DNA of 64,000 nucleotides from an uncultured Ignavibacteriaceae bacterium (GTDB taxonomy: Bacteria > Zixibacteria > MSB-5A5 > GN15 > PGXB01). The DNA is taken from contig CAYXTW010000003.1 in NCBI GenBank assembly GCA_964467955.1, positions 4,676-68,675 of the forward strand, read 5' to 3'. Under the pieces are notes generated by a model, which was given only the letters and a program-made list of their open reading frames with translations, was not told the DNA's origin and did not search any database. The translations under genes were made by a program, and so were the position numbers. Within the stretch, counting starts at the first letter, position 1. Each line of letters starts with the position of its first letter. Shown here one piece after another: positions 4,602 to 51,207 of the stretch.

Positions 4602-4602
4602 A

Positions 4603-28324: not shown

Positions 28325-31300
28325 GTGTACCTAAAGAGACTGGAACTTCTCGGATTTAAATCATTTCCGGATAAAACCGTGGTCAAACTGATACCCGGGG
28401 TCACTTCCGTGGTGGGGCCGAACGGATGCGGCAAAACCAATATTCTGGATGCGATTCGCTGGGTGCTGGGCGAGCAGAAAGTATCTCTTCTTCGCGGCGC
28501 GAAAATGGAAGAAATTATCTTTAATGGGACGCACGATGTCAAACCGCTGGGTATGGCCGAAGTCACGCTCGTGATTCAAAATAATAAAGGGGTCCTTCCG
28601 ACCGAATACAGCGAAGTGCAGGTGACTCGCCGCCTGTTCCGCTCGGGGGAATCGGAATACCTGCTTAACAAAGTCCCCTGCCGCTTAAAGGATATTATCG
28701 ACCTTTTTATGGATACCGGGGTCGGGGCGCATATTTATTCCGTGATACAGCAGGATATGATCGATGCCATCCTATCCGACAGGACCGATGACCGTCGCTT
28801 TTTATTCGAGGAAGCCTCAGGTATTTCCAAATACAAGAGCAGAAAAAAAGCGGCTATTCGCAAATTGGAAGCCACCGATGCCGATCTCGTGCGATTGAAC
28901 GATATCGTATCCGAAGTTAATACGCAGGTGAATTCGCTTAACCGCCAGATGAGAAAGGCGAGGCGATACAAGGAATTTTCGGACGAATTAAAAGGCTGGG
29001 AATTGTTTTTAAGCAAGAACGCCATCGATGAACTAAGCCATGAATACAGGGAATTATCCAATCAGAGGGAGATGCTTGCGGATAACAAAGTAAAATCGGA
29101 AACGGATATTGATATTATAAGCGCCTCGCAGGAGACTGAACGAAAGAAGTTGATTGATCTGGAAAAACAGCTTGCTGAAATTTCCAATGATATTTTTAGA
29201 AAATCCGAGGAAGCACACACCGTCGAGCGCGAGATTTCAGTCCTGAATGAAAGGCGTGATAATGCGCGCCAATTAAGAGAAAAAAACGTCCTCGACATTG
29301 AGGCTTATGCAATACGCAAAGAGAATCTCCTTGAGCAAATCGGACAGCATCAGAGAGAAATGACATCAATCGATGAAGCGCTGAGTCGGCTCGAAAATGA
29401 AATCAAGGAGAAAGAGGAAGCGCTGACAGCTGTCGATGAAAAAATTCTCGAGGCCCGTCGCGAACGCGAAAAAATTAATCAAAAATTAATGGCCCTGGAA
29501 GGAAGATTGTCGGCCGGCCAAAGCGATGACAATAATCTCAGGGAACAGGAGAACGAAATCGGCTCCGGCATGTCGACACTCGATGAGCGGATTGGGGAAT
29601 TGAATCTCGAACATGAGTCTCTTCTCGGCAAAAAAACAGATTGCGAGATTAAACTGGCCGAACTGGAAAATAAAATCAACGAAACCAAATCAAAGAAAAG
29701 TACTCTGGAAAATGACCTCTCAGCCCTGGACGAGCAATATGATGAAATATCCGGCAAAATATATGAGCTTTCATCGTCGCTCGAAGCCGCCCAGGCGAGG
29801 AATCATCTTTTGAAACAGATGGTGGCACAGTTCGAAGGTTATGGCAGCGGGGTCGTATCCGCCATGGAAAGCCGCGAAAGATGGCCCGGCTTAATCGGCA
29901 CGGTGGCGGATAATTTGACGCCTCAATCCGGCCATGAACAACCGATTGAAGCCGCTCTGGGCGAAAGGGCCGGATTTATGATTTGCCGTGAACGAGCAAC
30001 GGCTGACGAAATAATCGATTACCTCAAAGGCGAAGTAAAAGGCAAAGCCGGACTGGTAATTCTCGAGTGCGCGGGACCCGATCCGCTTTCAATTCGTCCG
30101 CAGATAACCGACGAAGGCTTTATCGGCTGGGCTGACGATTTCGTCAGTGTTTCTGATGAGCTACAAACACTGGCATCGTTATTGCTTGCAACCGTCGCTA
30201 TCGTCAAGCCCGAAAGCGTCAACGATATTCTGGATCAGCTTCCTTCCTATTATTCAGCGGTAACTACCGACGGCAGGATGTTTCGGGGCAGGGCCATAAT
30301 TTCCGGGGGATCTCGGGAGGGATTATCGCTTCTGGGTCGAAAAGAAAAAGTCGCTGAACAGGAAAAAACTATTGCGGAGTTAAATTCAAAAGCCGAGGAA
30401 CTCAGAAAACAAAAGAATAATATTACGACCTCAATTGGTGCTTCTCAAGCGGAACATAAGTCAATGATCAGCGAACTTGATAATCTGAAAGATGATTTGG
30501 AGAGTATTGAAAAGGAGTTGACTGCGAACGATTTTGGGCGTCAATCGACTCGAAAAGAAATCGAACGGCTGGAAAAAGAACGAGGCGAGTTATTGATAAA
30601 ACTGGATGCACTGCGCACCAGACAGTACAGCTTAAATCTTAATCATGAAGAACTGGCAAAAGAAAAGGAAACAATCGTCAATTCTCTAAATGAACAGGGG
30701 GCGCTTATCGAGAATCTCGAGAATGACTCCGAAAACATCGAAAAACTGGTTTCTTCGCTGCAAATTAAACGCGTCGAATTAAAGAGCAAATTTCAGCAAC
30801 TTGAAAGTCAGATCAGGCACACGCGGGAATTAATAAATGAAATAGACACTAATACCACGCGAAAATCAGAGGAAAACCGCCAGGCGGACTCCGAAATAGA
30901 GGGTTCTGCCGAAAAGAATATTTTTCTGGAGCGCCGGCTCCGGGAAATATTCGATCAGCGTGATGCTGTCTCGGAAAATCAGAAGAAGATTCAGGAGATG
31001 CATGATTCGACCCGCGAAAGTCTCGATGCTCGTGAAAAAGAAATAAAACAACTGCGTCAATCACGTGAAGAAATAAACAGTAAATTGCATACCGCCGAAA
31101 TCAGGAATACGGAAATCGAGGCGGAAACGAGAAATATCAGGAAGAAGATACGTGACGAGTATGATGTCAATCTGGAAGATATTGCGGTTGCGGCTCCGAA
31201 TCCTGAAATCCCTCTCGAAAAAAGACCGGAACGCATGTTGCATCTTCGTGAACGGATGAAAGATTTCGGAGCGGTCAATTTACTGGCGCTGGAGGAATAT

Positions 31301-31990
31301 AGAGTTACCAAAGAGCGGCAGGAGTTCTTGACTTCGCAGATGAACGATCTGATGAGTGCCAAAGCGACGTTGCAATCGACGATCATTAAAATCAATCAGA
31401 CCGCCAGGCGGTTATTTATGGAGACCTTCGCCAAAGTTCGATCCAATTTCCAGGAAGTATTTGCAGAGCTGTTTACCGGTGGAGAATCAGATATTCGATT
31501 GCTCGATGAAAACGACCCTCTGGAATCTCCGATTGAAATCATTGCTCGGCCGCGCGGGAAGAGACTTTTATCGATTACGCAGATGTCCGGTGGTGAGAGG
31601 GCGCTGACCGCAATATCGCTTTTGTTCGCCATCTATCTGGTCAAACCGTCGCCGTTCTGTATCCTTGACGAAATCGATGCACCACTCGATGATGCCAATA
31701 TTCACCGCTTCTTGAAAATTATTAAAACTTTCTCCGACCAGACACAGTTCATTATTATTACGCACAACAAGATCACGATGGAGGCGGCCGATATTCTCTA
31801 CGGTATAACCATGGAGCAGCCGGGCGTCTCACGGGTTGTTTCGGTGCGATTCAATGAGCCGGGCGCGGAAAAACTGATTAATACTTCTATTTCTGATATT
31901 GAGCCGATAGCGCCGGCAAAAATCCCGGAAGCGATAAAAGAAAGAATAACTCCACAGGTTAATATCAAACCGGCCGACGGTAAGGAATAA
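28325..31990 (+). CDS. smc: Chromosome segregation protein SMC
   Basis: 1221 aa. N-terminal Walker A (GPNGCGKTN), long coiled coils, a hinge, and a C-terminal signature motif (LSGGERALTAISLLFAIY) with Walker B (ILDEIDAPLD). GTG start. Confidence 0.9.
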   Translation: MYLKRLELLGFKSFPDKTVVKLIPGVTSVVGPNGCGKTNILDAIRWVLGEQKVSLLRGAKMEEIIFNGTHDVKPLGMAEVTLVIQNNKGVLPTEYSEVQVTRRLFRSGESEYLLNKVPCRLKDIIDLFMDTGVGAHIYSVIQQDMIDAILSDRTDDRRFLFEEASGISKYKSRKKAAIRKLEATDADLVRLNDIVSEVNTQVNSLNRQMRKARRYKEFSDELKGWELFLSKNAIDELSHEYRELSNQREMLADNKVKSETDIDIISASQETERKKLIDLEKQLAEISNDIFRKSEEAHTVEREISVLNERRDNARQLREKNVLDIEAYAIRKENLLEQIGQHQREMTSIDEALSRLENEIKEKEEALTAVDEKILEARREREKINQKLMALEGRLSAGQSDDNNLREQENEIGSGMSTLDERIGELNLEHESLLGKKTDCEIKLAELENKINETKSKKSTLENDLSALDEQYDEISGKIYELSSSLEAAQARNHLLKQMVAQFEGYGSGVVSAMESRERWPGLIGTVADNLTPQSGHEQPIEAALGERAGFMICRERATADEIIDYLKGEVKGKAGLVILECAGPDPLSIRPQITDEGFIGWADDFVSVSDELQTLASLLLATVAIVKPESVNDILDQLPSYYSAVTTDGRMFRGRAIISGGSREGLSLLGRKEKVAEQEKTIAELNSKAEELRKQKNNITTSIGASQAEHKSMISELDNLKDDLESIEKELTANDFGRQSTRKEIERLEKERGELLIKLDALRTRQYSLNLNHEELAKEKETIVNSLNEQGALIENLENDSENIEKLVSSLQIKRVELKSKFQQLESQIRHTRELINEIDTNTTRKSEENRQADSEIEGSAEKNIFLERRLREIFDQRDAVSENQKKIQEMHDSTRESLDAREKEIKQLRQSREEINSKLHTAEIRNTEIEAETRNIRKKIRDEYDVNLEDIAVAAPNPEIPLEKRPERMLHLRERMKDFGAVNLLALEEYRVTKERQEFLTSQMNDLMSAKATLQSTIIKINQTARRLFMETFAKVRSNFQEVFAELFTGGESDIRLLDENDPLESPIEIIARPRGKRLLSITQMSGGERALTAISLLFAIYLVKPSPFCILDEIDAPLDDANIHRFLKIIKTFSDQTQFIIITHNKITMEAADILYGITMEQPGVSRVVSVRFNEPGAEKLINTSISDIEPIAPAKIPEAIKERITPQVNIKPADGKE

Positions 31991-32008
31991 TGACAGGTTT
32001 GAACGGCT

Positions 32009-32926
32009 ATGGCTTCCGGATTTAAAAAGCTCAAGGAATCTCTGACAAAAACACGACAGAATATTTTAGGGAAAATCAGCGGTTTAATAGGCGGGCGGAA
32101 AATCGACGATGACCTGCTGGATGAAATCGAGGAAATTCTGCTTAAGGCCGATATCGGTGTTGCCGCCACCGAAAAAGCGATTGAGACCCTCCGCGAACAG
32201 GCGAGGAATGAAAAGCCCACCGGTTCCGATGATGTCTTCAGACTTCTTAAAAAACAACTTTCAGACATTTTAAACAAAACCGGATCCGAAGCCTCGTCTG
32301 CGATTTCATCCAAACCGATCGTCTGGATGATAACCGGTGTAAACGGCACCGGCAAGACCACTACCGTCGGTAAACTGGCGCATTACTTCAAAAGCAACGG
32401 CAAATCGGTAATGATTGCCGCCTGCGATACATTTCGCGCCGCAGCGGTCGAGCAATTGGGCATCTGGGCGGAACGCTCCGGGGTTGCCTTCGTGAAGGCG
32501 CACTCGGGGGCCGATCCTGCCGCGATTGCGTTCGACGCGGCTAATTCGGCGATTGCACGAAATATCGATTATCTCCTGATAGATACCGCCGGTCGATTGC
32601 ACACCAAGGCGAACCTTATGAAAGAATTGGAGAAAATCCGCCGCGTTACGGAAAAAGTAATTCCACCCGAACAGATTTTCGCCAAGTTAATTATTGACGG
32701 CACTACAGGCCAGAATGCACTATCGCAGGTAAAAATATTCGCCGATGCCGTCGGATGCGACGGTTTAATCGTTACCAAACTCGACGGTACCGCGCGTGGT
32801 GGGATCATGGTAGCCATAGCGGAAGATCTGTCGGTGCCGGTCGATTTTATCGGCATCGGTGAAAAAATAGATGATTTGCGACCATTTAACTCCGAAGAAT
32901 ACGTGGAGGCGCTCTTTGAAAGTTGA
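32009..32926 (+). CDS. ftsY: Signal recognition particle receptor FtsY
   Basis: 305 aa. SRP-GTPase NG domain with GVNGTGKTTT, DTAGR and TKLDG. Confidence 0.9.
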   Translation: MASGFKKLKESLTKTRQNILGKISGLIGGRKIDDDLLDEIEEILLKADIGVAATEKAIETLREQARNEKPTGSDDVFRLLKKQLSDILNKTGSEASSAISSKPIVWMITGVNGTGKTTTVGKLAHYFKSNGKSVMIAACDTFRAAAVEQLGIWAERSGVAFVKAHSGADPAAIAFDAANSAIARNIDYLLIDTAGRLHTKANLMKELEKIRRVTEKVIPPEQIFAKLIIDGTTGQNALSQVKIFADAVGCDGLIVTKLDGTARGGIMVAIAEDLSVPVDFIGIGEKIDDLRPFNSEEYVEALFES

Positions 32927-33317
32927 ACAGATCCAAGTACCGACGCATCAGCGGGAAGAACTGATCGATATTACCGGCGAGGTAAGAAGTTATATCACCA
33001 AGGCAGGTTTACAAAACGGCTTGATAGTTTTGTACGTACCTCATACAACCGCGGGGGTTACGATTAATGAAAATGCCGATCCCGACGTCGCGCGGGATAT
33101 TCTTTATAAACTCAATAAAGAAATTCCTCAGAGCGATGATTATCATCATGGCGAGGGGAACTCGGACGCCCATATAAAATCATCACTTGTCGGTGCTTCA
33201 TTGCAAATAATCGTTTCGGACGGTAAGCCTGTTCTGGGAACATGGCAGGGAATATATTTCTGCGAGTTTGACGGCCCTCGGACAAGGAAGTTATATCTTA
33301 AAGCCATTTCGGATTGA
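32915..33317 (+). CDS. yjbQ: YjbQ/UPF0047 family protein (secondary thiamine-phosphate synthase-like)
   Basis: HTTAGVTINENADPDV and HHGEGNSDAHIKSSLVG are UPF0047 motifs. Probable TTG start overlapping the ftsY stop. Confidence 0.7.
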
Positions 33318-33787
33318 TGCTTAAAATCAAAATCATCACGGTAGGAAAAAATAAAGAAGCATGGGTTGATGATGCGATAAAGCATTATGAAAAACTTTTG
33401 ACAAAATTCGCCAAACTTTCATTTGTCTACATCCACGACATAAAGAAGACACGCGCCCTTGGCGATGATGACGTAAAAAAGCTGGAGGCATCAAAAATAA
33501 AGAAAAAACTCAGCCCCAATTATAAAGTTGCGTTAAGTGATAAAGGCCGGCAGTACAATTCAGAGGAATTTTCGAATTTCATATCAAAGCTTATGCAGAA
33601 TTCCGGCGGTGTGATTGAAATTATTATCGGGGGCGTGTATGGGCTGGACGAATCCATAATCGATGAATGCAATGATATAATTTCCCTCTCCCCCATGACG
33701 ATGTCGCATCAACTGGTTCGGCCGGTATTGCTCGAGCAGCTTTATCGCGGCTTTTCGATTTTATCCGGCGGTAAATATCATAAATAA
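33314..33787 (+). CDS. rlmH: 23S rRNA (pseudouridine1915-N3)-methyltransferase RlmH
   Basis: 157 aa SPOUT-fold protein. N-terminus (M)LKIKIITVGKNKEAWVDDAIKHYEKLL is RlmH-like. Confidence 0.85.
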   Translation: MMLKIKIITVGKNKEAWVDDAIKHYEKLLTKFAKLSFVYIHDIKKTRALGDDDVKKLEASKIKKKLSPNYKVALSDKGRQYNSEEFSNFISKLMQNSGGVIEIIIGGVYGLDESIIDECNDIISLSPMTMSHQLVRPVLLEQLYRGFSILSGGKYHK

Positions 33788-33846: not shown

Positions 33847-36800
33847 TTACTTAAGAAGTATCATTTTCTTCGAAACCGCATGGTTTCCGGCCTCAACCCG
33901 ATAGAGATAGACACCTGAGGCCACCGATTGACCGAAATCATTGGTGCCATCCCATTCAATCGTTACAACGCCCGCTTCATCATGCCTTGAAATCTTTCTG
34001 ATGGCCTGGCCATTGATATTATAGATGGTCATGGTCCATGTGCACGCCGCGGGCAGGGAGAGATCGATTGAAGTCATGGGATTAAACGGGTTCGGATAAT
34101 TCTGCGAGACTTCAAATCGATCGGGAACCAGAGCGGATTTGATCTTCGTTTGCATCATATCACCGTGAAAAGTCGCGAATGAAAATTCTTTAAGCCTGAT
34201 ATCACCCGAACCGTTGCAATTAATATTGAGCAGGTTACCGTCGCCGATACCAATTGCCCGGCCGTATTCCAGACTGTATATCAGGACTCTGATTTCAGAA
34301 TCATTGATACTATATATATAATCCATCCCTTCAGCCATTTCACCAAGTTGTGGAATCGCCGGATTAATACCGTCGTATTCAAAAACCAGCACCCCCGCGC
34401 CGACATTACAGTACGATTCCGCGTTGATGGAAATACCGCCATTATTCGATTCGACCGACAACTCCATCCGGGCAAAATTCGGCGATAACCTTGGTATCGC
34501 CAGCGCATCGCCAACGATAATTCTTATGAGATAAACTAAATCGGCAACCGTCAGAGCATAACCGTCGGCGTTAACATCGGAAGCGGCCATCTGTCCGTCG
34601 GGATTTATGGTAAAGGCGGCCATACCGTAAATGAAAAAGTTCGTGTAAATAACAGCATCGGCGATTTCGTACGGGACTCCGTTGAGGTTAAGGTCGCCGC
34701 GGGCATCTATATCTTCGGGATGCTTGACGCATATACCGCCATTATAGAAATATATGCAGCGAACAGGAGAAACCTTATCACCGATCATACAGCTGTCCGG
34801 AGTTCCGAAACCTATCGGGCGGCTCTCTTCGGGATAATGGATATCATCCGACTCCTCCCAGATAATATGGCCGGAATAATTATAAATCCGAGCCTCTACA
34901 TATTGCAATTCACCGGTCGGATCGGCAAAGGAATTGTCGCCACAGTCCAGCCAGTAGAAACTAATCGGTAAATATTGACCCCCGATAGTCTGATCATTGG
35001 ATACAATCATAGTGATATTGGCAACCACGCCTTCCGGCGTCAACTGATCCTGTGGCGGGTGATGCGGCCCATCATTTTGATCGGCAATCCCGACCAATCT
35101 TATTAATCCGGACGGGCAGTTCGAGCCACAGTTGCCTTCCGTAGAAAGACGGTATGTAAAATATTCCCAATCCGGAATCGCCGGCCCCTTGTTTACATTT
35201 AAGAATGACATTCCTGAGTTATCATATCCGATCAATAGATCGAATCCTGCGATAAGATCATTAGTCTGGACTTTCACTCTGACCGGCACGCGCGAACCGA
35301 CAACCACACAGGAATCGGTTTCGATTGAGACATTGACACAAACCGAACAGATGGCTGATGGGAAAACCGTTACAAAAAGCGATTTTGAATCAGTCGAGCA
35401 GCCATCATAAGCTTCCAGACAAAATTCATAAGTCGTGTCGATATTATCGGGCGTGAAGCATACGACACCGCTGTCATCCCGGATCGGAGTGTATGTGCCC
35501 GGGCCGCAGGTTTTGGTTATCGTCAGCGGATTGCCGTCCGGATCAACGGCAAAAATTCCATCTATGCAAATCTGGCCGGTATCATTACTGCACCAGGGAG
35601 CCATTATATCTTCGGGGATCGTCAATTCCGGAGTCTGATTCCGCGTAACGGTTATATCCAGGCTGCAACTGTCGACGCCGCACACCGACGACGCCACGAC
35701 CGTCACCGTTTGAGTTCCTTCATCTGTTATCGGAACGCAGACCATGCCGTCATCATAACTTCCGGCCGGTCGGACGACAACGTCGATACTGTCACCGGTC
35801 AGCTCGACCTCGAAGCAAATGTCGGTCGAGTCGGTGAAGCATAACAAAGTGTCGATATCGCCGGGGCAAGTTATCTGCGGAGGATTAAGTATTGCTACAT
35901 TGGCCCTGACCGTGCATGTGTCGGCATTGCATGGAGATTGGGCGATAACCGTGATCTCATAATGACCTGACGTGTCGGCCATAAATGTCAATAGGCTATC
36001 GGCAAAGCTGTACTGACCAATCGGTGTGACTGTGACGGTCGCAGAAATCGGCGAGATGGGCAGAAGAACCGAAATATTACTCGGTCCACAAAGCACTTTA
36101 TTTATCGCAAGGTCAGGACATATAATTTCAACGTATTCATTAAAAGTAACATTGACCGTTACCTGACACGTATCGGCGCCGCAGATTTCCGAAGCGACAA
36201 CGTCTATAATATATGTCCCGGCCGTATCGGCGGTAAAGCAAAGCTGTCCGTCGGAATAATTGCCGAATGACGGAGATACTTCCGCCGAGGCTGGCGCTAT
36301 CACCAACGGGATACAAATCTCCTCCGGAACGCAAAGACTTACGTTAAATGGCTCAGTGGGGCGTTCGATTTCTGCTGCCGGTCCGGTCGTGACGATGATA
36401 CAAACTTCATCTGAACCGGAATCTTTGCATTCGTCATAAGCGGTTACGGTCAGACAATACGTGCCGGTATCCTCGGGAGTAAAGCAGACAAAGCCCAGAT
36501 TGGAATTATAATATCCGACTGGTGCGACAACAACCGAATCGATATCGTTATCCGTATCGATAATAGAAACTGATCGGCAAATTTCCTCGAAGTCACACTG
36601 GAAGTAAGCGGTATCATTACCGGCATCGACAACCGGCGGCGTATTGAAGATAACATCGACATCGAATCGACAGCTATCGTCGCCGCAATCGGTTTCGGCC
36701 AGAAGGTCGAATGCATAATGGCCGGCCGTGTCGGCCATGAAACATATCTCGCCGGCGCTATATTGCCCGAAAGGAAGAACCGTCACCTCGGCATAATCCG

Positions 36801-39800
36801 GCATGATCGATACCGGCAAACAAATCGTTTCCGGACCGCAGAGGAATATCGAAGTATCAGAAGGACAGATAACCTGGGCCGCCTGGCCGATATTTACGGC
36901 AAATTCGAAAGTACACATATCGGTACCGCATTCAGACTCGGCCGTAACTTCAATTGAATACGTACCGGAAGTATCTGCCTCGAAACAAAGCTGGCCGTCT
37001 TCATAAACGCCTTCGGGAATAGTACTTATGACCGCATCATCAGGCGTGAATGAAATCGGATAACATATCGTCGTAGTCCCGCAATATGAGAAATCTATCG
37101 GGTCCAGCGGACAATCGATATCGGCCGCCTCATTTGATGTCACCCTTATGAATATCGTATCGCTCGCTGAACGCTGGCAATCATCCACGGCCGTGATGAT
37201 AATCCGGTAGGTGCCGGTATCATCTGGAGTAAAACAGACCTGGCCGGTTTCAGAATCATACGTCCCCAAATCAGTCGAGACAATTATGATATTGTTGTCC
37301 GGATCGGAGACGGTCGCATCAAAACAAATCTCCTCGAACTGGCACTGAAAGATATCGAAATCGTTAGCCGCCCGGACAACCGGCGGGCTGTTTAAAATAA
37401 CTTCAACAATGGCCGTGTCGATGGTAACGGCACGGCAGCTATCATAGGCAGAAATAATTATTTCATGAATCCCCGGTGTCACATCCTCAAGACAGACAAA
37501 CTCATTGACAAGATTAGCACCGGTAACGATTATTGAATCTAAATTATTATCGACATCATTCACGATTAACGGCAAGCAGAGCGGGTCGTAATTGCAGACA
37601 ACCACTGAAGTATACGGTTCGATATTAACGGTCGGTGGTGAGTTTAATGTAACCATAACAGTCGTGGCCGCTGATGCCGTTTTACCGCAGGAATCGGTCG
37701 CGCTAATTTCTATATTGTACAATCCTGACGATTGGGGAGTGAAACAAACTTCACCGGTTTCGGCGTTATAATCACCATCCGGCGAAACCGTAACGGCCTG
37801 CAGATTCTTATCAACATCATTTATATCCACCGCAAAACAAATCTCGGTCGGCTCGCATAAATACACTGCAAAATCTTCGGCCGAAGTAATGGTCGGGGCA
37901 CTGTTCATTATAACGGTAATTATGGTCGAGTCGGAATCGGTACTACCGCACGCATCGGTCGCCGTCACCTTGACGACATACTCTCCGGCCGCGGTCGGCG
38001 TAAAGCATATCCGGCCCGAGATCGGATTATAAACGGCGCCCTCGGGCCAAAATGCTATATCGACCAGATTATCGTCGGCATCGGCAATACCAACCGGAAT
38101 ACAGATTTCCCCTTCGCCGCAGAGCGTCATCGTTTTTGACGGCGGCAATAGCACCAGCGGCCGTGAATTCATAGTCACGCTGACCGTGAATTCACAACTA
38201 TCGATGCCGCAATCATTGGCGGCAACTATTTTGAGATTTTTCTCTACCTCACAATTGGTATAGAAACAGATTGTCCCGTCGTCGGCATCATACCAGGCCG
38301 AGGGCGGGAATATGGAAATTTTAGCATCATCGGGTATGCCGTTTATTGGAAAACAGAGCGTATCCGGCCCGCAGATAAATACCGATGTATCGACGGGGCA
38401 ATCGAGATTTATCGCTTGACCGGCAATTACGGTTACCACGGTCGTGTCGGAATCGAGAGCCCCACACTCGTCAGTAAGAGTCGTCACAACATTATATTCG
38501 CCCGGGCCGGTAGGAGTGAAACAGACAAAACCATTAGAATAACTTCCCGGGCTCGTTTCTATCGAATTGATATTTTCGTCGATATCTGATACATCAACAG
38601 GTACACAAATTTCTCTATCCCATGCACACACCGTAATCGTCGAATCAGGTCCGGAAACAACTACTGGTGGGCTGTTTAAATCAACTGTGATACAAATCAT
38701 CGCCGTATCGGCGGAACAGGAATCAAGAGCGACAGCTTCAAAACAATATGATCCCGCTGTATCGGCCACAAAACTTAGAAGGCCGGTTTCGGAATTAATC
38801 TGCCCGAATTCGGAATTCAAACCAAAAGTAAGCGGGGCATCATCCGAATCGGCGGCATGTATCATATATTCAATTGTCATCCCCGGATCGCATATGAAAT
38901 ATTCTGTGTCGGCGGAAATAATTTCGGGCGGTACATTGATAACTACGTCAACGGTGAAGGAGCAATCCACCTTGCCGCACTCGTTCTCGGCCTCGACATT
39001 TATCACATAACTGCCCGAAGTCTCGGCATCGAAACAAACCATACCGCCGGCATACATCCCCATCGGGGATACGGTTACGATTGCATCACTCGGCGTAATA
39101 ACAACAGGGCGGCAGATAGTCTCCGGGCTGCAAAGTTTGAGCGCTGTATCAGGCGGACAGATAACCTGGGGTGCTTCGCCTATCTCGACGGAGAATTGCA
39201 GATTACATGTATCGGCCCCGCACTCGGTCGAGGCGATAACTTCGAAATTATAAACACCAGTCGTATCCGCCATGAAGCAAAGATTTTGACCGTCATAATA
39301 TGTTCCCTCTGGAACAGTAACATGCGCATCGACAGGATATATCGGCAAATTATAACATATCGTATCCGGATTGCAAATCGATTCAACGATCTGGTCAACT
39401 GGGCATTCAATGCGCGCCGGTTCACCTAAGTCAACCACAAAGGCCAACTGGCATGTATCAGCGCCGCATTCGGCGGCGGCGATGATTTCCATGTTATATG
39501 TTCCGGCCGTATCCGGCATGAAACAAAGATCGCCGTCAGTATAGGTCGCGTAATCGGGAATAGTAATGACAGCGTTATCAGGTGTAATCGTCAGAGGATA
39601 ACAGACCGTCTCGCCCGGACAGATGGATTCATAAATCGGTTCGTCGGGGCAAGTTATTTCAGCCGGTTGATTCAATTGAACATTAAATATGATATCACAG
39701 CTGTCGGCACCGCAGTCCGCGGTGGCAATAACCTTGATGATATATGTCCCGGAAGTATCGGGAGTGATACACAACTCACCATTAGAATAATAAGCACCTT

Positions 39801-42800
39801 CGGAAACAGCCACAGTGGGATCATCCGGAGTAATATCAAGCGGGATGCAAATCTCCTGCAAACCGCACAAATTATAATCAAACGGTTCCGACGGACAATT
39901 GATTTCGGCTATCTCACCGACAACAACATCGATAACGGTCGTATCCACACCTGTCGCATAACAGGAATCGGTCGCCGTAACGATAATCGTATCAATCCCG
40001 GGACCATCAGGAGTATAACAGACTTTACCCGTAATCGAGTCATAGACGGTGCTTTCATTGGTGGAAATTATAAATAAATTGTTATCATAATCGGTAATAT
40101 TGACATCGAAACAGATTTCCTCAAGTCCGCACAGGAGAACTCCGAAATCATCGGCCGAACTCACCAACGGAGCAGAATTAAACATGATAGCGATTACGGT
40201 CGTATCGGCCGACATGACGCCGCATTCATCGGTCGCCTCAATAATAAATGTATAATCACCGGCTCCGGTCGGAGTGAAGCATACATAACCGTTATCATAA
40301 GAACCCTCGCCAATAAGAGTTATATCCGTTATATTATGTTCAAGGTCACTGATCTCAACCGGGAAACAAAACTCGGTCGGCTCACACATAAAGATAGTGT
40401 CATTGGTCGCCGAAATGATAATCGGCGGACTATTCAGTTCTACGCCAATACCTATCAAGGCCGTATCGGCTCCGCATCCATCAGCGGCCTCAATCGAGAA
40501 CCAATATATGCCTGAGGATAAATCAGCAGTAAAGCTTATTTCACCGGTGTTCGGATCGATTGTACCAAAAGATGAAAGCAACGCAAAAGTAATCGGATCC
40601 CCTTCATTATCAATGGCCTTAACCTTATAATTGAAAACTTCACTGGCCTCGCAGCTGAAGAAAGCGGTATCGCCCGACACAATTTGCGGCGCGCTATTAA
40701 ATATAACATCGACACCAAAATGGCAGCTGTCAAGGCCACAGTCAGTTTCCGCCTTTACGAAAATTTCATAAAATCCGGAAGTGTCAACTTCAAAACAGAC
40801 CTCACCGTTATCATACACACCGACAGGACTTACAGTCACGACGGCGTTCTGCGGCAACAATCCCACCGGGCGACAAATCTGATCGGCGCCGCACAATTCG
40901 ACTGATGTATCCGCCGGGCAGGTCAGCTGCGGAATTTCGCCGATGCTGATGTCAAATACAACCTGACAGGTGTCGGAACCGCAATCGGCGGTGGCAATAA
41001 CATCTATTATATACGTTCCCGTCGTATCGGGCGTAAAACATATCTCTCCATCATGGTACGTAACACCATCGGGAACGGTCACGACGGCATCAAGCGGCGC
41101 AATTGTCAACGGCTCGCAGATTTCTTCCTGACCGCAAATACTTCGACTGATTGGTTCTTCGGGACAATCTATAAAGGCGGCATCACCGGTCGTAACGGTA
41201 ATGACCGTGGTATCGACATCAGAAGTATAACATGAATCAGTTACGGTCACAGCGATCTCATAGACTCCGGGACTATCGGGAGTGAAACAAATTTGCTTAT
41301 TTACTGAATCATAAACCGCCGCCTGATTCGTACTGACAATAAAAATATTATTATCCGGGTCAATTATATCGACATCGAAGCAAATTTCTTCGAAGTCGCA
41401 TTGGAATACCTCAAAATCGTCGGCCGTAACCACCTGCGGAGGAGTGTTAAGAACAATCGTAATGACGGTCGTATCGGATGCCGTATTACCGCAGGAGTCG
41501 GATGCCTCGATTATAAAAGTAAACTCACCGGAAGCTTGCGGAGTGAAACAGACATAACCGTTCGAGTAAGTACCATCACCTGTCAAAGAGATTGATTGAT
41601 TATCATTATCCGGATCGGTTACCGAGACCGGGAAACAGTAATCACTCAGCTCGCACATAAAGATTGATGTATCCGGCGATGAGACCACCACCGGTGAACT
41701 GCCAAGGCTGACGTCGACATTTATAGTATCCGCACCTTTGGCCCCGCATTCATCGACGGCGGACACAGTCAGGTTATAAACTCCATCGGAATCCGGTGTG
41801 AAACATATCTGTTCATTTCCGGCATCATAAAAACCGGTCGGTGAAACCGTCACGTTGAAAAGATTAAAATTGACGTCGAAAATTTCGACATCGAGACAAA
41901 TTTGTTCCGGCCGGCACAGGTCAACAGCTGTATCCGCCGGCAAGCTGACGACCGGCTTGGCGTTGATTATGACGGCGACATTCACCGAATCGGTATCTTC
42001 GGCACCACAGGAATCAACGGCGTGAACAACAATCGGATACGTCCCTGAAACTGTCGGCGTAAAACAAACTCGCCCCAAATCAGGATTGTAAAATCCGTCT
42101 CGGGTTATAAAAGTATTTTCGATATTGCCGTCCATATCGGTTACTCCCACCGGTATACAAATCTCCTGCGGCTCACAAATAAATATCGATGTATCCGGCG
42201 GCGCCATTACCAGCGGCGGGGAGTTTAAAGTGACATTGACTGAAAATTCGCAACTGGTCAGACCGCAGCCGGTTTCGATGACAACCGTAATATCTTTTTT
42301 CACCGAGCAGTTGGTATAAAAACAAATCGACTGATTATCAGCATCATACCATACCGATTGCGGAAATATCGTCACATTCCCCCCGGGAAGTTCACCGATT
42401 GGAATACAAATCGTGTCCGGCTCACATATAAATACATCACTGTCATCTGGGCATTCAATCGACGGCGGCTCTCCATAAACGACCGTAACAACTACCGTAT
42501 CATACGGAATGGGAGGGCAGGCCATGTCTTTCGGTAATTCGCCGCGCAGACATTTATCTGTGGCCTCGTAAATAAAAACATAGTCGGCCGAGTCGACGGC
42601 ATCGGGCAGAAAGCAGGTAACACCGCCGGTATCGCTGGTCATGGTAAATGTCCCCGGCCCAGCTGTCTGGCTAATAATGAGAGAATCGTATTCAAGGTCG
42701 GGATCAAAAGCATCGATATCAAAACAGATTGTATCGGGCTGGCATATAACGAATTTTCGGTCCGGATTATTAAAGCTCGGAAACGTATTCCATTGAGCAT

Positions 42801-43575
42801 TTATACATATCACAGCGGTATCGGCAGAACAGCCATCGGAAGCTTCAAATGTATGGCAATTCTCACCCATTAAATCCGTCCAGAAACGAAACCAGCCGGT
42901 AACGGAATCAATATAACCGTTGTCCGATAGTACTCGGTACGTGACTTGGTCATTATCCGGGTCGTCAGCCTCTACATAAATGTCAAAAAAGTCATTGTCG
43001 TAACAATTATAAAGACTGGTATCACCGGTTATTATTACCGGCGGCTGATTTTCATATACAACATATGTTCGCGTCGCAAAAAGAGTGTCGCCAGCATCAT
43101 TGTACGCCATAAAGGTGACATCAGAGCTGCCCGCTGATATCGGCGTATATTCATAATATCCGTAGGCAGGCGGAATTGATGGCGTCGATTCAAAATCGCC
43201 CGGCCCCGATGTTTTTTCAAGATTGATTATCGATTGCAAATCTTTGCCGGAGACTATAATCGTATCATAAATAGTTGTCCCGAGACAAACATCGATTATG
43301 TCATCGAAATTATTGAAATACAGCTGGCTGTCGGGGCAGCTACTACCGTCCGACGGCAGCGGCTGGCCGATATCGATGGCCTCGATGTCTCCACTCACCG
43401 GAACGCTCGATACCGTACCGTTCGTTTTATAATTCCCCCCGATTGATACCTGATCGGCCGTATCATAAACGGCGGCTTCCGGGGTTTTTGCCTGAACATA
43501 GGTGCCAATCGTAATAGCGGCTATAAGAAAGATTAAAGAAACCGCGGCCTTTTTTAGCCGTGTTCGTCTAATCAT
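33847..43575 (-). CDS. Giant (3242 aa) secreted cell-surface protein: signal peptide, about 30 tandem roughly 85-aa Cys-containing HYR/Ig-like repeats, a cohesin-like domain, a type-I dockerin, and a T9SS type-A C-terminal sorting domain
   Basis: RBS GGAGGAAAG before ATG 43575. Signal peptide is MIRRTRLKKAAVSLIFLIAAITIGTYVQA. The repeats share the pattern PPxhxCPxDTxxFxCxxxxICFPVxhxDxDxNhxxh...G.YxxGxhCFTPxxxGxYxhxhxAxDxCGxxxxDTxhhTV. Dockerin Ca-loops are DLNLNGVPYEIADAVIY and DVNADGYALTVADLVYL. C-terminal ...VSQNYPNPFNPMTSIDLSLP...GVYLYRVEAGN... is Por_Secre_tail. Confidence 0.8.
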   Translation of the reverse strand: MIRRTRLKKAAVSLIFLIAAITIGTYVQAKTPEAAVYDTADQVSIGGNYKTNGTVSSVPVSGDIEAIDIGQPLPSDGSSCPDSQLYFNNFDDIIDVCLGTTIYDTIIVSGKDLQSIINLEKTSGPGDFESTPSIPPAYGYYEYTPISAGSSDVTFMAYNDAGDTLFATRTYVVYENQPPVIITGDTSLYNCYDNDFFDIYVEADDPDNDQVTYRVLSDNGYIDSVTGWFRFWTDLMGENCHTFEASDGCSADTAVICINAQWNTFPSFNNPDRKFVICQPDTICFDIDAFDPDLEYDSLIISQTAGPGTFTMTSDTGGVTCFLPDAVDSADYVFIYEATDKCLRGELPKDMACPPIPYDTVVVTVVYGEPPSIECPDDSDVFICEPDTICIPIGELPGGNVTIFPQSVWYDADNQSICFYTNCSVKKDITVVIETGCGLTSCEFSVNVTLNSPPLVMAPPDTSIFICEPQEICIPVGVTDMDGNIENTFITRDGFYNPDLGRVCFTPTVSGTYPIVVHAVDSCGAEDTDSVNVAVIINAKPVVSLPADTAVDLCRPEQICLDVEIFDVNFNLFNVTVSPTGFYDAGNEQICFTPDSDGVYNLTVSAVDECGAKGADTINVDVSLGSSPVVVSSPDTSIFMCELSDYCFPVSVTDPDNDNQSISLTGDGTYSNGYVCFTPQASGEFTFIIEASDSCGNTASDTTVITIVLNTPPQVVTADDFEVFQCDFEEICFDVDIIDPDNNIFIVSTNQAAVYDSVNKQICFTPDSPGVYEIAVTVTDSCYTSDVDTTVITVTTGDAAFIDCPEEPISRSICGQEEICEPLTIAPLDAVVTVPDGVTYHDGEICFTPDTTGTYIIDVIATADCGSDTCQVVFDISIGEIPQLTCPADTSVELCGADQICRPVGLLPQNAVVTVSPVGVYDNGEVCFEVDTSGFYEIFVKAETDCGLDSCHFGVDVIFNSAPQIVSGDTAFFSCEASEVFNYKVKAIDNEGDPITFALLSSFGTIDPNTGEISFTADLSSGIYWFSIEAADGCGADTALIGIGVELNSPPIIISATNDTIFMCEPTEFCFPVEISDLEHNITDITLIGEGSYDNGYVCFTPTGAGDYTFIIEATDECGVMSADTTVIAIMFNSAPLVSSADDFGVLLCGLEEICFDVNITDYDNNLFIISTNESTVYDSITGKVCYTPDGPGIDTIIVTATDSCYATGVDTTVIDVVVGEIAEINCPSEPFDYNLCGLQEICIPLDITPDDPTVAVSEGAYYSNGELCITPDTSGTYIIKVIATADCGADSCDIIFNVQLNQPAEITCPDEPIYESICPGETVCYPLTITPDNAVITIPDYATYTDGDLCFMPDTAGTYNMEIIAAAECGADTCQLAFVVDLGEPARIECPVDQIVESICNPDTICYNLPIYPVDAHVTVPEGTYYDGQNLCFMADTTGVYNFEVIASTECGADTCNLQFSVEIGEAPQVICPPDTALKLCSPETICRPVVITPSDAIVTVSPMGMYAGGMVCFDAETSGSYVINVEAENECGKVDCSFTVDVVINVPPEIISADTEYFICDPGMTIEYMIHAADSDDAPLTFGLNSEFGQINSETGLLSFVADTAGSYCFEAVALDSCSADTAMICITVDLNSPPVVVSGPDSTITVCAWDREICVPVDVSDIDENINSIETSPGSYSNGFVCFTPTGPGEYNVVTTLTDECGALDSDTTVVTVIAGQAINLDCPVDTSVFICGPDTLCFPINGIPDDAKISIFPPSAWYDADDGTICFYTNCEVEKNLKIVAANDCGIDSCEFTVSVTMNSRPLVLLPPSKTMTLCGEGEICIPVGIADADDNLVDIAFWPEGAVYNPISGRICFTPTAAGEYVVKVTATDACGSTDSDSTIITVIMNSAPTITSAEDFAVYLCEPTEICFAVDINDVDKNLQAVTVSPDGDYNAETGEVCFTPQSSGLYNIEISATDSCGKTASAATTVMVTLNSPPTVNIEPYTSVVVCNYDPLCLPLIVNDVDNNLDSIIVTGANLVNEFVCLEDVTPGIHEIIISAYDSCRAVTIDTAIVEVILNSPPVVRAANDFDIFQCQFEEICFDATVSDPDNNIIIVSTDLGTYDSETGQVCFTPDDTGTYRIIITAVDDCQRSASDTIFIRVTSNEAADIDCPLDPIDFSYCGTTTICYPISFTPDDAVISTIPEGVYEDGQLCFEADTSGTYSIEVTAESECGTDMCTFEFAVNIGQAAQVICPSDTSIFLCGPETICLPVSIMPDYAEVTVLPFGQYSAGEICFMADTAGHYAFDLLAETDCGDDSCRFDVDVIFNTPPVVDAGNDTAYFQCDFEEICRSVSIIDTDNDIDSVVVAPVGYYNSNLGFVCFTPEDTGTYCLTVTAYDECKDSGSDEVCIIVTTGPAAEIERPTEPFNVSLCVPEEICIPLVIAPASAEVSPSFGNYSDGQLCFTADTAGTYIIDVVASEICGADTCQVTVNVTFNEYVEIICPDLAINKVLCGPSNISVLLPISPISATVTVTPIGQYSFADSLLTFMADTSGHYEITVIAQSPCNADTCTVRANVAILNPPQITCPGDIDTLLCFTDSTDICFEVELTGDSIDVVVRPAGSYDDGMVCVPITDEGTQTVTVVASSVCGVDSCSLDITVTRNQTPELTIPEDIMAPWCSNDTGQICIDGIFAVDPDGNPLTITKTCGPGTYTPIRDDSGVVCFTPDNIDTTYEFCLEAYDGCSTDSKSLFVTVFPSAICSVCVNVSIETDSCVVVGSRVPVRVKVQTNDLIAGFDLLIGYDNSGMSFLNVNKGPAIPDWEYFTYRLSTEGNCGSNCPSGLIRLVGIADQNDGPHHPPQDQLTPEGVVANITMIVSNDQTIGGQYLPISFYWLDCGDNSFADPTGELQYVEARIYNYSGHIIWEESDDIHYPEESRPIGFGTPDSCMIGDKVSPVRCIYFYNGGICVKHPEDIDARGDLNLNGVPYEIADAVIYTNFFIYGMAAFTINPDGQMAASDVNADGYALTVADLVYLIRIIVGDALAIPRLSPNFARMELSVESNNGGISINAESYCNVGAGVLVFEYDGINPAIPQLGEMAEGMDYIYSINDSEIRVLIYSLEYGRAIGIGDGNLLNINCNGSGDIRLKEFSFATFHGDMMQTKIKSALVPDRFEVSQNYPNPFNPMTSIDLSLPAACTWTMTIYNINGQAIRKISRHDEAGVVTIEWDGTNDFGQSVASGVYLYRVEAGNHAVSKKMILLK

Positions 43576-48397: not shown

Positions 48398-48718
48398 ATG
48401 TTTGCGGTATTCGAATCAGGAGGATTACAATTCAGAGTGGAGGAAGGTACGGCGGTTAAGATTCCGCATTTGACAGCCTCTCCCGGTGATACGGTCTCAA
48501 TCGATAAGGTTTTATTGATAGACGACGGCGAGAATTCAATGGTCGGTACGCCTTATCTTGACTCAGCCTTAATTGAAGCCGAAATATTGAACGAAGGGCT
48601 GGCCAAAAAAATCGATGTCTATAAGTTTAAAAAGCGAACCAATTACCGCCGGTTACGCGGGCATCGTCAAAAATTTACCGAAATCAAAATCAAGAAGATT
48701 ACGCCGCCTAAAAGTTGA
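48398..48718 (+). CDS. rplU: 50S ribosomal protein L21
   Basis: 106 aa. MFAVFESGGLQFRVEEG... is a canonical L21 N-terminus. RBS AAGGAGG sits 8 nt upstream. Confidence 0.9.
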   Translation: MFAVFESGGLQFRVEEGTAVKIPHLTASPGDTVSIDKVLLIDDGENSMVGTPYLDSALIEAEILNEGLAKKIDVYKFKKRTNYRRLRGHRQKFTEIKIKKITPPKS

Positions 48719-51207
48719 TTTATCCAGTAAAAAATATCGCCCATAATTGGCGCGGACAGACCATCTTACGGTCTTTTATACTTCTGGTTTGTCTTTTTTT
48801 AATCCACCAGGGACAAGTCGCGGCGCAGTCGTTCAATGTTGTCGATATTAAAGTCGAAGGTAACCGGATAGCAGCAACCAGTTTGATTCTATCGGTCAGC
48901 GGGATAAATAAAGGCGATGAACTGACCGCCTCGGCATCACAGGATGCGGTCCGCCGTTTATACGGTCTGGGATTTTTTCGAGATGTTCAGATTCTGGCCG
49001 AAGAAGTCACCGGCGGTCTGAGTCTTGTAATCAAAGTCAAAGAATTGCCCAAACTGGAGAGAGTGGAATTCGAGGGCAATAAGGAAATAGACTCGGATGA
49101 TTTGCGCAAAGATTTGGAACTTACCGGGGGAAATTACCTGTCGAATAATCTAATCTATGAAAAGAAAAACAAGATCATTGACATTTATGGCGAGAAGGGT
49201 TATTTCATGGTCAAGGTCGATTATGACCTGGATTATATGAATGATTCAACGACAGCCATTTTGACCTACAAAATCTCCGAGGGCTCCAAAGTCAAAGTGG
49301 AAAAGGTCGTCCTGACCGGAAACAAACAGGTTAAGGCCGACAAAATCATAGGCAAAATGCGCAATCGAAAACGAGGCTTTTTAAAATCCTCAAATTTCGA
49401 CAAGGAAAAATATCCGGAAGATAAAGAAAAGATAATCGATTACCTTCATAAAGAAGGTTATATCGACGCGTATCTCATTTCCGACTCAATCGCCATTGAT
49501 ACCGCCTCCAATAAAATGACGATTTATCTGAACATTTATGAGGGGCCGCGATACATTTTCGGCAAAACCACCTGGTCGGGCAAGGAAGTTTTTGATGAAA
49601 ACACTCTGAATAAAACACTCAAATATGACGAGGGCAGGATTTTTAATAATGAGAAATTCGAAGAATCGATAAATGAAATATATTTTCTATACCAGGAAAG
49701 GGGTTATCTTCATGTCCGGGTTATCGACGATCGGAAGACACGCGACAGTATTATCGATATAAATTTCGATATAATTGAAGGGCTTCCATCGGAAGTAAAT
49801 CTGGTCAGGATAATGGGAAATACCAAGACGCGGGAAAAGGTGATAAGGCGTGAGATGGTTATGCGGCCGGGCCAGGTTTTTCATCGTTCATTTCTGCTTC
49901 GCTCTATACGGAATATCATGCAGTTAAATTATTTTGCCAATGTAACTCCGGATATTACTCCTCTTCCCTCGGGTGACGTTGACGTTGTCGTCGATGTCGA
50001 GGAAAAACCGACGGCGCAGATTTCGGCCGGGGCGGGTTATTCGGGGCGCGATAAATTTGTCGGAACACTCGGTCTGGGAATTCCCAATTTCCGCGGTATG
50101 GGTCAGCATCTCTCATTAAATGTCGATATCGGCAGTCAGCGAAATTCGTATTCCATATCCTTTACCGAACCCTGGATGTTTTCCACGCCGACATCTCTGG
50201 GGGTGGATGTGTACTATACCAACCGGCAGTGGTACTCCGATTACACGGAGGGACGTCGTGGCGGATCATTCAGAATCGGGCGGCGACTGCGCTGGCCCGA
50301 TGACTATTTCAGTATTGTGGGGCAATATCGTTTGGAGGATGATCGCTTTTATGATTTCAGCGACGTCTATCGGAATGCACATTCATATATGACGGAAGAG
50401 ACATACATATATCCCAAGGTCGCCGGCGACACGGTGCAACATACCAATATTTTTTACGGCGGTCCGTTGCCGAATTCGCTGACGAGATTCGACGGCAGCT
50501 GGTTTAATTCCTCGAGCCTGCAATTCACCATTACCCGTGACAGCCGCGACCTGCCCGAATTTTCCACGCGCGGCTCGGTTTTATCCTACTCCATCGAAGT
50601 TGTCGGGGGCTGGCTCGGCGGATACTGGAAATACCGCAAACACATTCTGACAGCTTCGAAGTTTATTCCGGTTTTGGGCAAAATCGCACTGGCCGGAAAA
50701 TTGACATTCGGGGCCGTGACCGCCCAGAACGATTTAAACATCCTCGAGTTCGACCGCTTCTCGCCGGGCGGAACCGATTATTTCGGCATTGTCCGCGGGT
50801 ATGAATCCGGCTCCCTGACACCGGATACGACCATTACGTCGACCGATCTGACGTACTACTATGGTGATTCGGATCTTGCACAGCCGCCTGATTCCGTCGT
50901 TCCCCGGACATCGAAATACACGACCACTGTTCGCGGAAAATATTTGCTCGTCGGCAATCTGGAACTGCAGATTCCGATTTCGGAAAATCAGTTGTACGGC
51001 ATTTTATTTTATGACGCCGGTAACTCCTGGCTGAACAGCAGTGATATTAAATTAAATGACTTATATAGAGGAGTCGGTTTGGGTTTTCGATTAGTGGTTC
51101 CGGGAATCGGGACGATTGGTTTTGATTTCGGTTATTCCCTGGATGAACGATCCGACCAGAAAAAGGGCTGGAAACCGCATTTCCAAATCGGCACAACGTT
51201 CAGATAG
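48715..51207 (+). CDS. bamA: Outer-membrane protein assembly factor BamA (5 POTRA domains plus Omp85 barrel)
   Basis: 830 aa. Signal peptide, POTRA repeats (..VVDIKVEGN..., ..LERVEFEGNKEI..), and a C-terminal barrel ...HFQIGTTFR. TTG start overlapping the rplU stop. Followed by skp and lpxD, as in the conserved bamA-skp-lpxD cluster. Confidence 0.85.
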   Translation: MIYPVKNIAHNWRGQTILRSFILLVCLFLIHQGQVAAQSFNVVDIKVEGNRIAATSLILSVSGINKGDELTASASQDAVRRLYGLGFFRDVQILAEEVTGGLSLVIKVKELPKLERVEFEGNKEIDSDDLRKDLELTGGNYLSNNLIYEKKNKIIDIYGEKGYFMVKVDYDLDYMNDSTTAILTYKISEGSKVKVEKVVLTGNKQVKADKIIGKMRNRKRGFLKSSNFDKEKYPEDKEKIIDYLHKEGYIDAYLISDSIAIDTASNKMTIYLNIYEGPRYIFGKTTWSGKEVFDENTLNKTLKYDEGRIFNNEKFEESINEIYFLYQERGYLHVRVIDDRKTRDSIIDINFDIIEGLPSEVNLVRIMGNTKTREKVIRREMVMRPGQVFHRSFLLRSIRNIMQLNYFANVTPDITPLPSGDVDVVVDVEEKPTAQISAGAGYSGRDKFVGTLGLGIPNFRGMGQHLSLNVDIGSQRNSYSISFTEPWMFSTPTSLGVDVYYTNRQWYSDYTEGRRGGSFRIGRRLRWPDDYFSIVGQYRLEDDRFYDFSDVYRNAHSYMTEETYIYPKVAGDTVQHTNIFYGGPLPNSLTRFDGSWFNSSSLQFTITRDSRDLPEFSTRGSVLSYSIEVVGGWLGGYWKYRKHILTASKFIPVLGKIALAGKLTFGAVTAQNDLNILEFDRFSPGGTDYFGIVRGYESGSLTPDTTITSTDLTYYYGDSDLAQPPDSVVPRTSKYTTTVRGKYLLVGNLELQIPISENQLYGILFYDAGNSWLNSSDIKLNDLYRGVGLGFRLVVPGIGTIGFDFGYSLDERSDQKKGWKPHFQIGTTFR

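Follow-up and report, generated by a model that had tools for sequence, protein, structure and literature searches.

A divergent cohesin-dockerin pair next to the sorting domain of a giant T9SS cargo protein in Zixibacteria-type genomes

Introduction

Few protein-protein interactions in biotechnology are as strong and as often re-used as cohesin-dockerin pairing, and the presence of both modules in a single polypeptide is standard for scaffoldins. To our knowledge, nearly everything known about this pairing originates from Gram-positive cellulosomes. The locus described here raises the question of whether a related pair is used on the surface of an uncultured Gram-negative bacterium. It is located on a stretch of 64,000 nucleotides (64 kb) of contig CAYXTW010000003.1 (positions 4,676 to 68,675, forward strand; GenBank assembly GCA_964467955.1, an uncultured Ignavibacteriaceae bacterium), referred to as the window throughout. 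On its minus strand, an open reading frame (ORF) of 3,242 amino acids (aa) at 33847..43575 encodes a secreted giant surface protein. An earlier note, prepared from the letters and ORF translations, had quoted peptides interpreted as a cohesin-like domain and a type I dockerin upstream of a type IX secretion system (T9SS) C-terminal domain (CTD) in one T9SS-sorted polypeptide, and all of these peptides were located in this ORF. We examined whether the modules are authentic members of their families, what their relatives look like, and which function the combination may have. The cohesin and the dockerin turned out to be part of an extensive family of modules shared among Zixibacteria-type genomes.

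A C-terminal cassette of four modules

The C-terminal ~500 residues of the giant protein form a cassette of a cohesin, a dockerin, a second beta-sandwich (termed X), and a type A CTD (Table 1). The CTD (aa 3160-3239) was matched by Por_Secre_tail PF18962 with 33.7-34.4 bits (cut-off 27), by TIGR04183 with 43 bits (cut-off 23), and by FlgD_ig with 44 bits, the match stopping 3 residues short of the protein end. Its location at the extreme C-terminus, together with a Sec signal peptide recognized from the translation, characterizes the protein as a predicted type A T9SS cargo.

Table 1. Features of the giant surface protein gene and their coordinates in the window
Feature	Residues (aa)	Position	Strand	Basis or remark
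Whole gene, secreted giant surface protein	3,242 in total	33847..43575	(-)	ORF list; stop codon 33847-33849
Sec-type signal peptide, N-terminal, MIRRTRLKKAAVSLIFLIAAITIGTYVQA/K	about 1-29	43489..43575	(-)	by eye from translation
Repeat body, ~30 Cys-rich acidic immunoglobulin (Ig)-like repeats, period ~85 aa		35353..43488	(-)	weak Pfam sums, motif spacing
Divergent type-I-like cohesin	2742-2950	34726..35352	(-)	
Short conserved linker (..DIDAR) and divergent dockerin	2951-3033	34477..34725	(-)	
Calcium loop 1, DLNLNGVPYEIAD, 13 residues	2961-2973	34657..34695	(-)	ortholog conservation
Calcium loop 2, DVNADGYALTVAD, 13 residues	3000-3012	34540..34578	(-)	ortholog conservation
X beta-sandwich	3034-3151	34123..34476	(-)	follows dockerin subtype almost always (Doc-X dyad)
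Type A T9SS C-terminal sorting domain	3160-3242	33850..34098	(-)	PF18962, TIGR04183, FlgD_ig

The cohesin-like stretch starts with the peptide SAICSVCVNV (aa 2740-2749, nt 35329-35358, minus strand). Scanned with the Pfam hidden Markov models (HMMs), as the earlier note had suggested for verification, the window cohesin reached 19.3-20.4 bits against PF00963 (E 6e-4 to 1.3e-3), below the cut-off of 24.1, with an alignment spanning model positions 1-68 of 139 only. Dockerin_1 (PF00404) did not match the window copy, even when the isolated 93-aa piece was scanned at E<=10. Since this outcome was nearly refuting for the window copy, support for the domains was sought from orthologs and structure.

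Pfam Cohesin was matched by 26 of 77 orthologs at E<=0.01, each scanned singly (best E 2.7e-7), and multi-cohesin paralogs pass the PF00963 cut-off with 58-78 bits. Dockerin_1 was found in nine of the 77 full orthologs at E<=0.01 and in 29 of 43 isolated ortholog dockerin pieces (best E 3e-7), and there are orthologs matched by both models. A profile of the dockerin pieces, searched against PDB sequences, retrieved 3ul4_B, a type I dockerin (E 0.0049), and 4fl4_A, a Cel9 dockerin (E 0.12), the HMM alignment to 3ul4_B requiring a one-residue gap in each calcium loop. The X piece had no Pfam match, nor was a Pfam family detected for this module in the orthologs.

An AlphaFold2 (AF2) model of aa 2732-3159 (428 aa), calculated with the ortholog alignment, displayed three domains, i.e., a beta-sandwich (query residues 16-219), three helices (240-290), and the second beta-sandwich X (305-414), with a predicted local distance difference test score (pLDDT) of 88.5 and a predicted template modelling score (pTM) of 0.60. 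Foldseek comparison of this model with the PDB returned almost exclusively cohesins (E to 4e-11, TM 0.75-0.82 relative to the target), the window cohesin being a jelly-roll beta-sandwich superposable on solved cohesins. For a dockerin-only model (pLDDT 87.7), all 22 of 22 Foldseek matches were dockerins (best E 9.6e-3, TM up to 0.83). Type II cohesins and dockerins were not the top structural matches. X was also considered as a second cohesin, solely on the basis of a Foldseek whole-model alignment to the cohesin dyad 3l8q; hhalign gave a probability of 0.5% for X against cohesin, i.e., no homology, and this candidate was rejected.

With ~210 aa in comparison to the usual ~140 aa, the cohesin is ~70 aa longer than canonical ones owing to four insertions carrying conserved Cys residues (GNCGxxCPSG, DCGDN, C198), and the alignment of the 77 orthologs shows little or no variation at several cohesin-core and Cys positions. 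The dockerin is built as a three-helix module from two calcium-loop/helix (F-hand) segments plus a connecting helix, the first segment being DLNLNGVPYEIADAVIYTNFFIYG (aa 2961-2984, nt 34624-34695) and the second DVNADGYALTVADLVYLIRIIVGD (aa 3000-3023, nt 34507-34578), both on the minus strand. Both loops follow the pattern D-x-N-x-[ND]-G-x6-D, placing the last acidic residue at position 13, and thus deviate from the canonical EF-hand loop of 12 residues (D1, N3, D5, D12); this spacing is the same in all aligned orthologs. In loop 1, D, N, E, and D are invariant and N is near-invariant across 43-77 orthologs; in loop 2, N, D, G, and D are invariant and the first D is near-invariant. The two 25-residue segments share ~6 identities (~24%), and the family consensus is equally asymmetric. 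Consequently, the strict type I consensus DxNxDGxxxxxD, which the earlier note had seen in both segments, does not apply.

In composition-preserving shuffles of the giant protein, the pattern D.[ND].[DN]G.{6}D appeared at a rate of 0.041 per shuffle, and a pair of loop motifs within 60 aa in 0 of 20,000 shuffles. The paired calcium-loop motif is no chance event. A looser loop pattern had no other match in the six-frame open frames of >=100 aa across the window. Dockerin helix residues are strongly conserved phylum-wide (EIADAV.FTNYF and TVADLVYLIRVI), and the motif I-D-x-R-G-D at the junction of both modules is nearly invariant. The RGD tripeptide therein (aa 2958-2960, 34696-34704, minus strand) directly precedes loop 1 and hardly varies among orthologs (..IDARGDxNLNG..); rather than an integrin-type motif, it probably represents a portion of the dockerin N-cap.

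Judged by the AF2 model, the Foldseek matches, and the Pfam matches of the orthologs, the window cohesin and dockerin appear to be real members of their folds and families, but too divergent for Pfam in the window copy, and are best called a divergent, type-I-like subfamily. The core of the earlier claim, that a single polypeptide combines a cohesin, a dockerin, and a T9SS CTD, is thereby supported. In a rival reading, both folds would have been kept while their mutual binding was lost, leaving a spacer, a calcium-dependent stabiliser, or a binder of a non-protein ligand. The sub-threshold HMM scores, the 13-residue non-canonical loops, and the large cohesin insertions would fit such relics, as would the presence of known non-cellulosomal cohesin-like modules of uncertain function among the structural matches (2jh2, 2vo8, and 2xdh, the last from Archaeoglobus fulgidus). 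However, the phylum-wide conservation of the dockerin helix residues, and cohesin and dockerin numbers that expand and shuffle jointly among relatives (see below), which is a signature of interaction modules, render this reading improbable.

A modular family of cohesins, dockerins, and X modules

Searching with the dockerin profile yielded 1,488 cluster representatives at E<=1e-3, 1,209 of them at E<=1e-10, among 1.84 billion, and about 60 of the best 150 representatives contain 2-5 dockerin copies. For a census of the cohesin (Coh), dockerin (Doc), and X modules, purpose-built HMMs were applied to 262 relatives, resulting in totals of 288 Coh, 338 Doc, and 280 X; these proteins were gathered with cassette and dockerin queries, which biases the proportions and leaves the existence of the variants unaffected. 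Of the 288 Coh, 269 were joined to a Doc without an intervening linker (median gap -3 residues), and 18 were followed by another Coh. No Coh preceded 69 of the Doc, and 279 Doc were followed by X. The architectures encountered comprise (Coh-Doc-X)2-3, (Coh-Doc-X)3-Doc-X, Coh-Coh-Doc-X, and cohesin-less (Doc-X)2-3, as well as Coh4-Doc-Coh-Doc-X-Doc-X with a T9SS CTD, and paralogs in related genomes carry up to five cohesins. Two types of endings were observed, namely a T9SS CTD (P0123, P0124) or a canonical Dockerin_1 above the Pfam threshold (P0121, P0135, P0147, P0166, P0169, and others), with P0135 and P0169 possessing a Pfam-positive cohesin in addition. CTD-ended and Dockerin_1-ended paralogs resemble the anchored and non-anchored tiers of cellulosomes.

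Both the giant protein and such paralogs can be present in the same genome. The closed Zixibacteria chromosome CP070766.1 encodes an ortholog of the giant protein (L004) as well as paralog P0121 (UCD94658.1), clustered with two Dockerin_1 genes. At this second locus (L084, 7977-14935, plus strand), small Dockerin_1 genes of 195 and 378 aa precede P0121, a 1,644-aa (Coh-Doc-X)3-Doc-X-Dockerin_1 protein. The assignment of the 195-aa gene relies on a precomputed Pfam label only, and the 378-aa protein bears an N-terminal cohesin-like signature (VAGFDFLLV). This arrangement resembles a scaffoldin gene cluster. A second metagenome-assembled genome (MAG) harbors an ortholog of the giant protein (L055) and, in addition, three tandem signal-peptide genes (L081, 7770-13788, plus strand, CAZLBP010000012.1) encoding proteins of 699, 741, and 510 aa with the architectures Coh-Coh-Doc-X, Coh-Coh-Doc-X, and Coh-Doc-X, without a T9SS CTD. 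Each of them ends in a duplicated dockerin-like segment of a second kind, CCxxRGNVDGxxGxGGPIDVxDLTYLVxYLFxGGPxPPC, which is undetected by Pfam.

The occurrence of canonical Dockerin_1 modules in Zixibacteria genomes directs attention to a cellulosome-like complex, in which the basal cohesin would dock dockerin-bearing hydrolases or peptidases on the cell surface. Such a complex has been proposed for Cloacimonadota, where a CTD-bearing cohesin scaffoldin and dockerin enzymes were inferred in Ca. Stygibacter (PMC8542988). However, scaffoldins of this kind have several cohesins, and the window protein has exactly one and, in the Pfam scan, no carbohydrate-binding module (CBM). Neither a cohesin nor a dockerin was found in the ten other window proteins scanned, and no catalytic domain in the 21 dockerin-bearing relatives scanned against Pfam, genome-wide enzyme-dockerin fusions not having been surveyed. 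In these three sets, i.e., the window protein, the ten others, and the 21 relatives, a dockerin-bearing carbohydrate-active enzyme or CBM was absent likewise. Recruitment of enzymes is therefore considered quite improbable for this protein.

A putative binding role at the base of the adhesin

The reading that we favor, as somewhat probable from the module composition, is a calcium-dependent Coh-Doc binding that joins different molecules near the cell, at the foot of the adhesin, and would cross-link or nucleate a surface-anchored assembly. T9SS cargo proteins of Bacteroidota lose their CTD once they are exported, and the C-terminus thus generated is attached to the outer membrane. Cleavage of the CTD in the same manner would leave a new C-terminus just after X, anchored to the outer membrane. 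A single domain would then separate the Coh-Doc pair from the cell surface, and the pair would form the foot of a stalk made up of ~30 Ig-like repeats. The dockerin would fold around two calcium ions and bind to a same-family cohesin carried by a second molecule. This partner could be a neighboring copy of the adhesin, in head-to-tail or reciprocal pairing, or a paralog of the (Coh-Doc-X)n or (Doc-X)n type without an anchor of its own. In either case, the fibre may be cross-linked into, or nucleate, a surface-anchored protein assembly, with the giant protein taking the role of an anchoring scaffoldin; enzyme cargo is not evident.

This proposal is supported by the domain identities, by the conservation of the cassette and its locus, by genomes that contain several family members, and by the relatives: Coh, Doc, and X occur there in unequal numbers and shuffled order, and therefore look like independent binding modules rather than a fixed two-domain unit. 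As indirect support, the same shuffling makes the self- or hetero-oligomerising surface scaffolds suggested by the earlier note plausible. A direct precedent for a cohesin that binds the dockerin of its own polypeptide and multimerises is Ruminococcus bromii Amy4, the cohesin of which binds Amy4's own dockerin, predicting multimerisation (PMC4611034).

Several observations weigh against intermolecular binding. With the family HMMs (filters off), the 64 kb contain one Coh, one Doc, and one X only, and the window copy stays below the Pfam threshold for Cohesin and without a match for Dockerin_1. Calcium binding is not assured for loops of 13 residues, and the census is biased by its cassette and dockerin queries. 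Finally, the near-linkerless fusion of Coh and Doc (269/288) is also expected of a rigid or self-bound two-domain unit.

Such an intramolecular or rigid Coh-Doc unit is the main rival to binding between molecules. As an intramolecular clasp, the dockerin would bind to, or rigidly pack on, the cohesin of its own chain, producing a stiff, mechanically strong, calcium-stabilised fibre base without oligomerisation. Besides the direct fusion, the nearly invariant junction motif is in agreement with this idea, and so is a mean pLDDT of the junction residues of 74 in the three-domain model vs 60 in the isolated dockerin model, along with the pTM of the three-domain chain. In contrast, 18 cohesins lack an own dockerin and 69 dockerins an own cohesin, and unequal Coh:Doc numbers per protein do not fit an obligatory 1:1 self-clasp. 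Moreover, the ~10 residues from the last cohesin strand to loop 1 look short for reaching the canonical 8-3-6-5 face, as far as can be inferred. We therefore assess a clasp as unlikely, although it is the competitor to be taken most seriously.

Conservation of the giant protein and its gene position

Using the 428-aa segment (aa 2732-3159) as query, 641 database relatives were obtained at E<=1e-3, which share 40-60% identity along their entire length and, with few exceptions, are labelled Zixibacteria. In GTDB species genomes, cassette relatives were present on at least 557 stretches, and 80 related loci from this genome scan served for locus-level counts. Downstream of the adhesin gene, a convergent rlmH-yjbQ-ftsY arrangement as in the window was conserved in 61 of the 80 loci, and in 68 of them the reading frame was open through all upstream sequence examined (up to 3 kb). 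Orthologs of 2,500-3,600 aa occur among the library proteins, and the C-terminal cassette is shared by orthologs of up to 3,626 aa. The gene of this giant surface protein thus keeps its position across Zixibacteria-type genomes, a stability which is unusual for a giant repetitive surface-protein gene. In the window itself, smc-ftsY-yjbQ-rlmH (28325-33787, plus strand) is convergent with the adhesin gene (33847-43575, minus strand).

The closest relative (L001, CAYVMO010000002.1) shows 94% identity in the cassette and 96% in FtsY. This locus and many others are labelled as uncultured Ignavibacteriaceae or Ignavibacteriales, while many of the 80 loci bear a Zixibacteria label and some are simply titled "bacterium". 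As the nearest named relatives are all Zixibacteria, the taxon labels of the MAGs so titled among the third-party annotation (TPA) entries look unreliable.

Further features of the window

The body of the adhesin was matched by Pfam in a weak, summed manner only, by PKD, Y_Y_Y, Big_9, cadherin, and HYR-like Ig models. A [VI]CF[TEMY][PA] motif returns every 83-87 aa or multiples thereof. The repeats are rich in Asp, Thr, Val, and Ile besides Cys, with the recurring motifs CxPxxIC and VCFTP, and the whole 3,242-aa protein contains 162 Cys (5%). Given the weak and collective matches to Ig models, the repeat family itself looks unclassified.

A second T9SS cargo of 502 aa is encoded at 55417-56925 (minus strand), its sole Pfam match being Por_Secre_tail with 27 bits, at the cut-off, and the rest is unannotated. 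At 57348-58322 (plus strand), a 324-aa protein carries an fn3-like domain and, behind it, leucine-rich repeats (LRR_4, E 1e-21) and may represent another surface or interaction protein. LRR proteins are among the dockerin carriers in ruminococci (PMC4611034). Two Omp85/POTRA proteins of 632 and 830 aa, BamA/TamA-like, are located at 2703-8124 (minus strand), where a 1,173-aa ORF adjoins the gene, and at 48715-51207 (plus strand). The presence of this pair fits a diderm envelope.

Discussion

In comparison to the structurally characterized type I pairs from clostridia (C. thermocellum CipA Coh2-Xyn10B Doc, 1OHZ/2CCL; OlpA-Doc918, 3UL4; A. cellulolyticus ScaC/ScaB, 4UYP), the cassette of the window differs in several respects. 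The host belongs to the Gram-negative FCB group and the anchor is a T9SS CTD instead of SLH or sortase. The calcium loops comprise 13 instead of 12 residues, and the cohesin is enlarged by its Cys-containing insertions. Near-identical duplicated segments are the basis of the dual binding mode; as the two halves of the window dockerin are dissimilar, this mode is unlikely here. Furthermore, the dockerin is internal, fused to the cohesin, and backed by X, and neither enzymes nor CBM were found with it in the proteins scanned.

Cohesin and dockerin in one polypeptide are a feature shared with R. bromii Amy4 and with proteins of A. fulgidus. However, Amy4 is a Gram-positive GH13 enzyme with a C-terminal dockerin, whereas the carrier described here is a non-catalytic giant adhesin, in which the pair is adjacent without a linker and located upstream of the T9SS signal. 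The scaffoldin proposed for Ca. Stygibacter, which belongs to the FCB group as well, is likewise a large non-catalytic cohesin protein, and a conserved CTD would attach it to the surface of its own cell (PMC8542988). Its cohesins are arranged in tandem and detected by Pfam, CBM2/CBM3 are present, and dockerin enzymes accompany it (PMC8542988). In the window protein, by contrast, a single cryptic cohesin is joined to a single cryptic dockerin and a CBM is absent, and its relatives display shuffled Coh, Doc, and X modules but, in the sample scanned, no catalytic domain.

The X module invites a further comparison. In the X-Doc dyads of type II and type III dockerins, such as C. thermocellum CipA X-DocII and R. 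flavefaciens CttA XDoc, a beta-sandwich X is obligatorily paired with the dockerin near the cell-anchoring end. The window-type dockerin similarly co-occurs with a beta-sandwich X near the anchoring end, but the order is Doc-X and the X of the window has no detectable sequence family.

The earlier note had regarded the arrangement as undescribed. This does not hold in general, considering the precedents for cohesin and dockerin in the same polypeptide and for a proposed cohesin scaffoldin bearing a CTD. The part that stands is the Coh-Doc-X-CTD cassette: for this cassette, the 13-residue-loop dockerin subtype, the Doc-X dyad, and the syntenic conservation of the adhesin, no description was found in the open-access literature. 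The same literature yielded no paper on Zixibacteria with dockerin, cohesin, cellulosome, or T9SS, and nothing relevant on Latescibacteria with dockerin and cohesin.

Extending the favored intermolecular binding to the level of the phylum leads to a more tentative proposal, which we consider possible rather than probable. Zixibacteria might employ a phylum-wide, non-cellulosomal, T9SS-anchored Coh-Doc assembly system with a dockerin subtype of its own, defined by 13-residue loops, an obligatory Doc-X dyad, and, usually, fusion to a cohesin. A second, canonical dockerin would end the non-anchored members, resulting in a two-tier hierarchy like that of anchoring and adaptor scaffoldins, and the giant adhesin would be the anchor for a self-assembling surface lattice or fibre network.

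The family around the adhesin comprises at least 1,200 protein clusters, which are mostly missed by standard domain models. Should the modules bind in the way indicated by their folds, hundreds of MAG proteins annotated as "hypothetical" or "T9SS sorting domain" would be explained, and the new dockerin subtype, with its 13-residue loops and Doc-X dyad, would become usable for orthogonal protein assembly. Cohesin-dockerin logic would then also serve an uncultured Gram-negative phylum in constructing the architecture of its cell surface.

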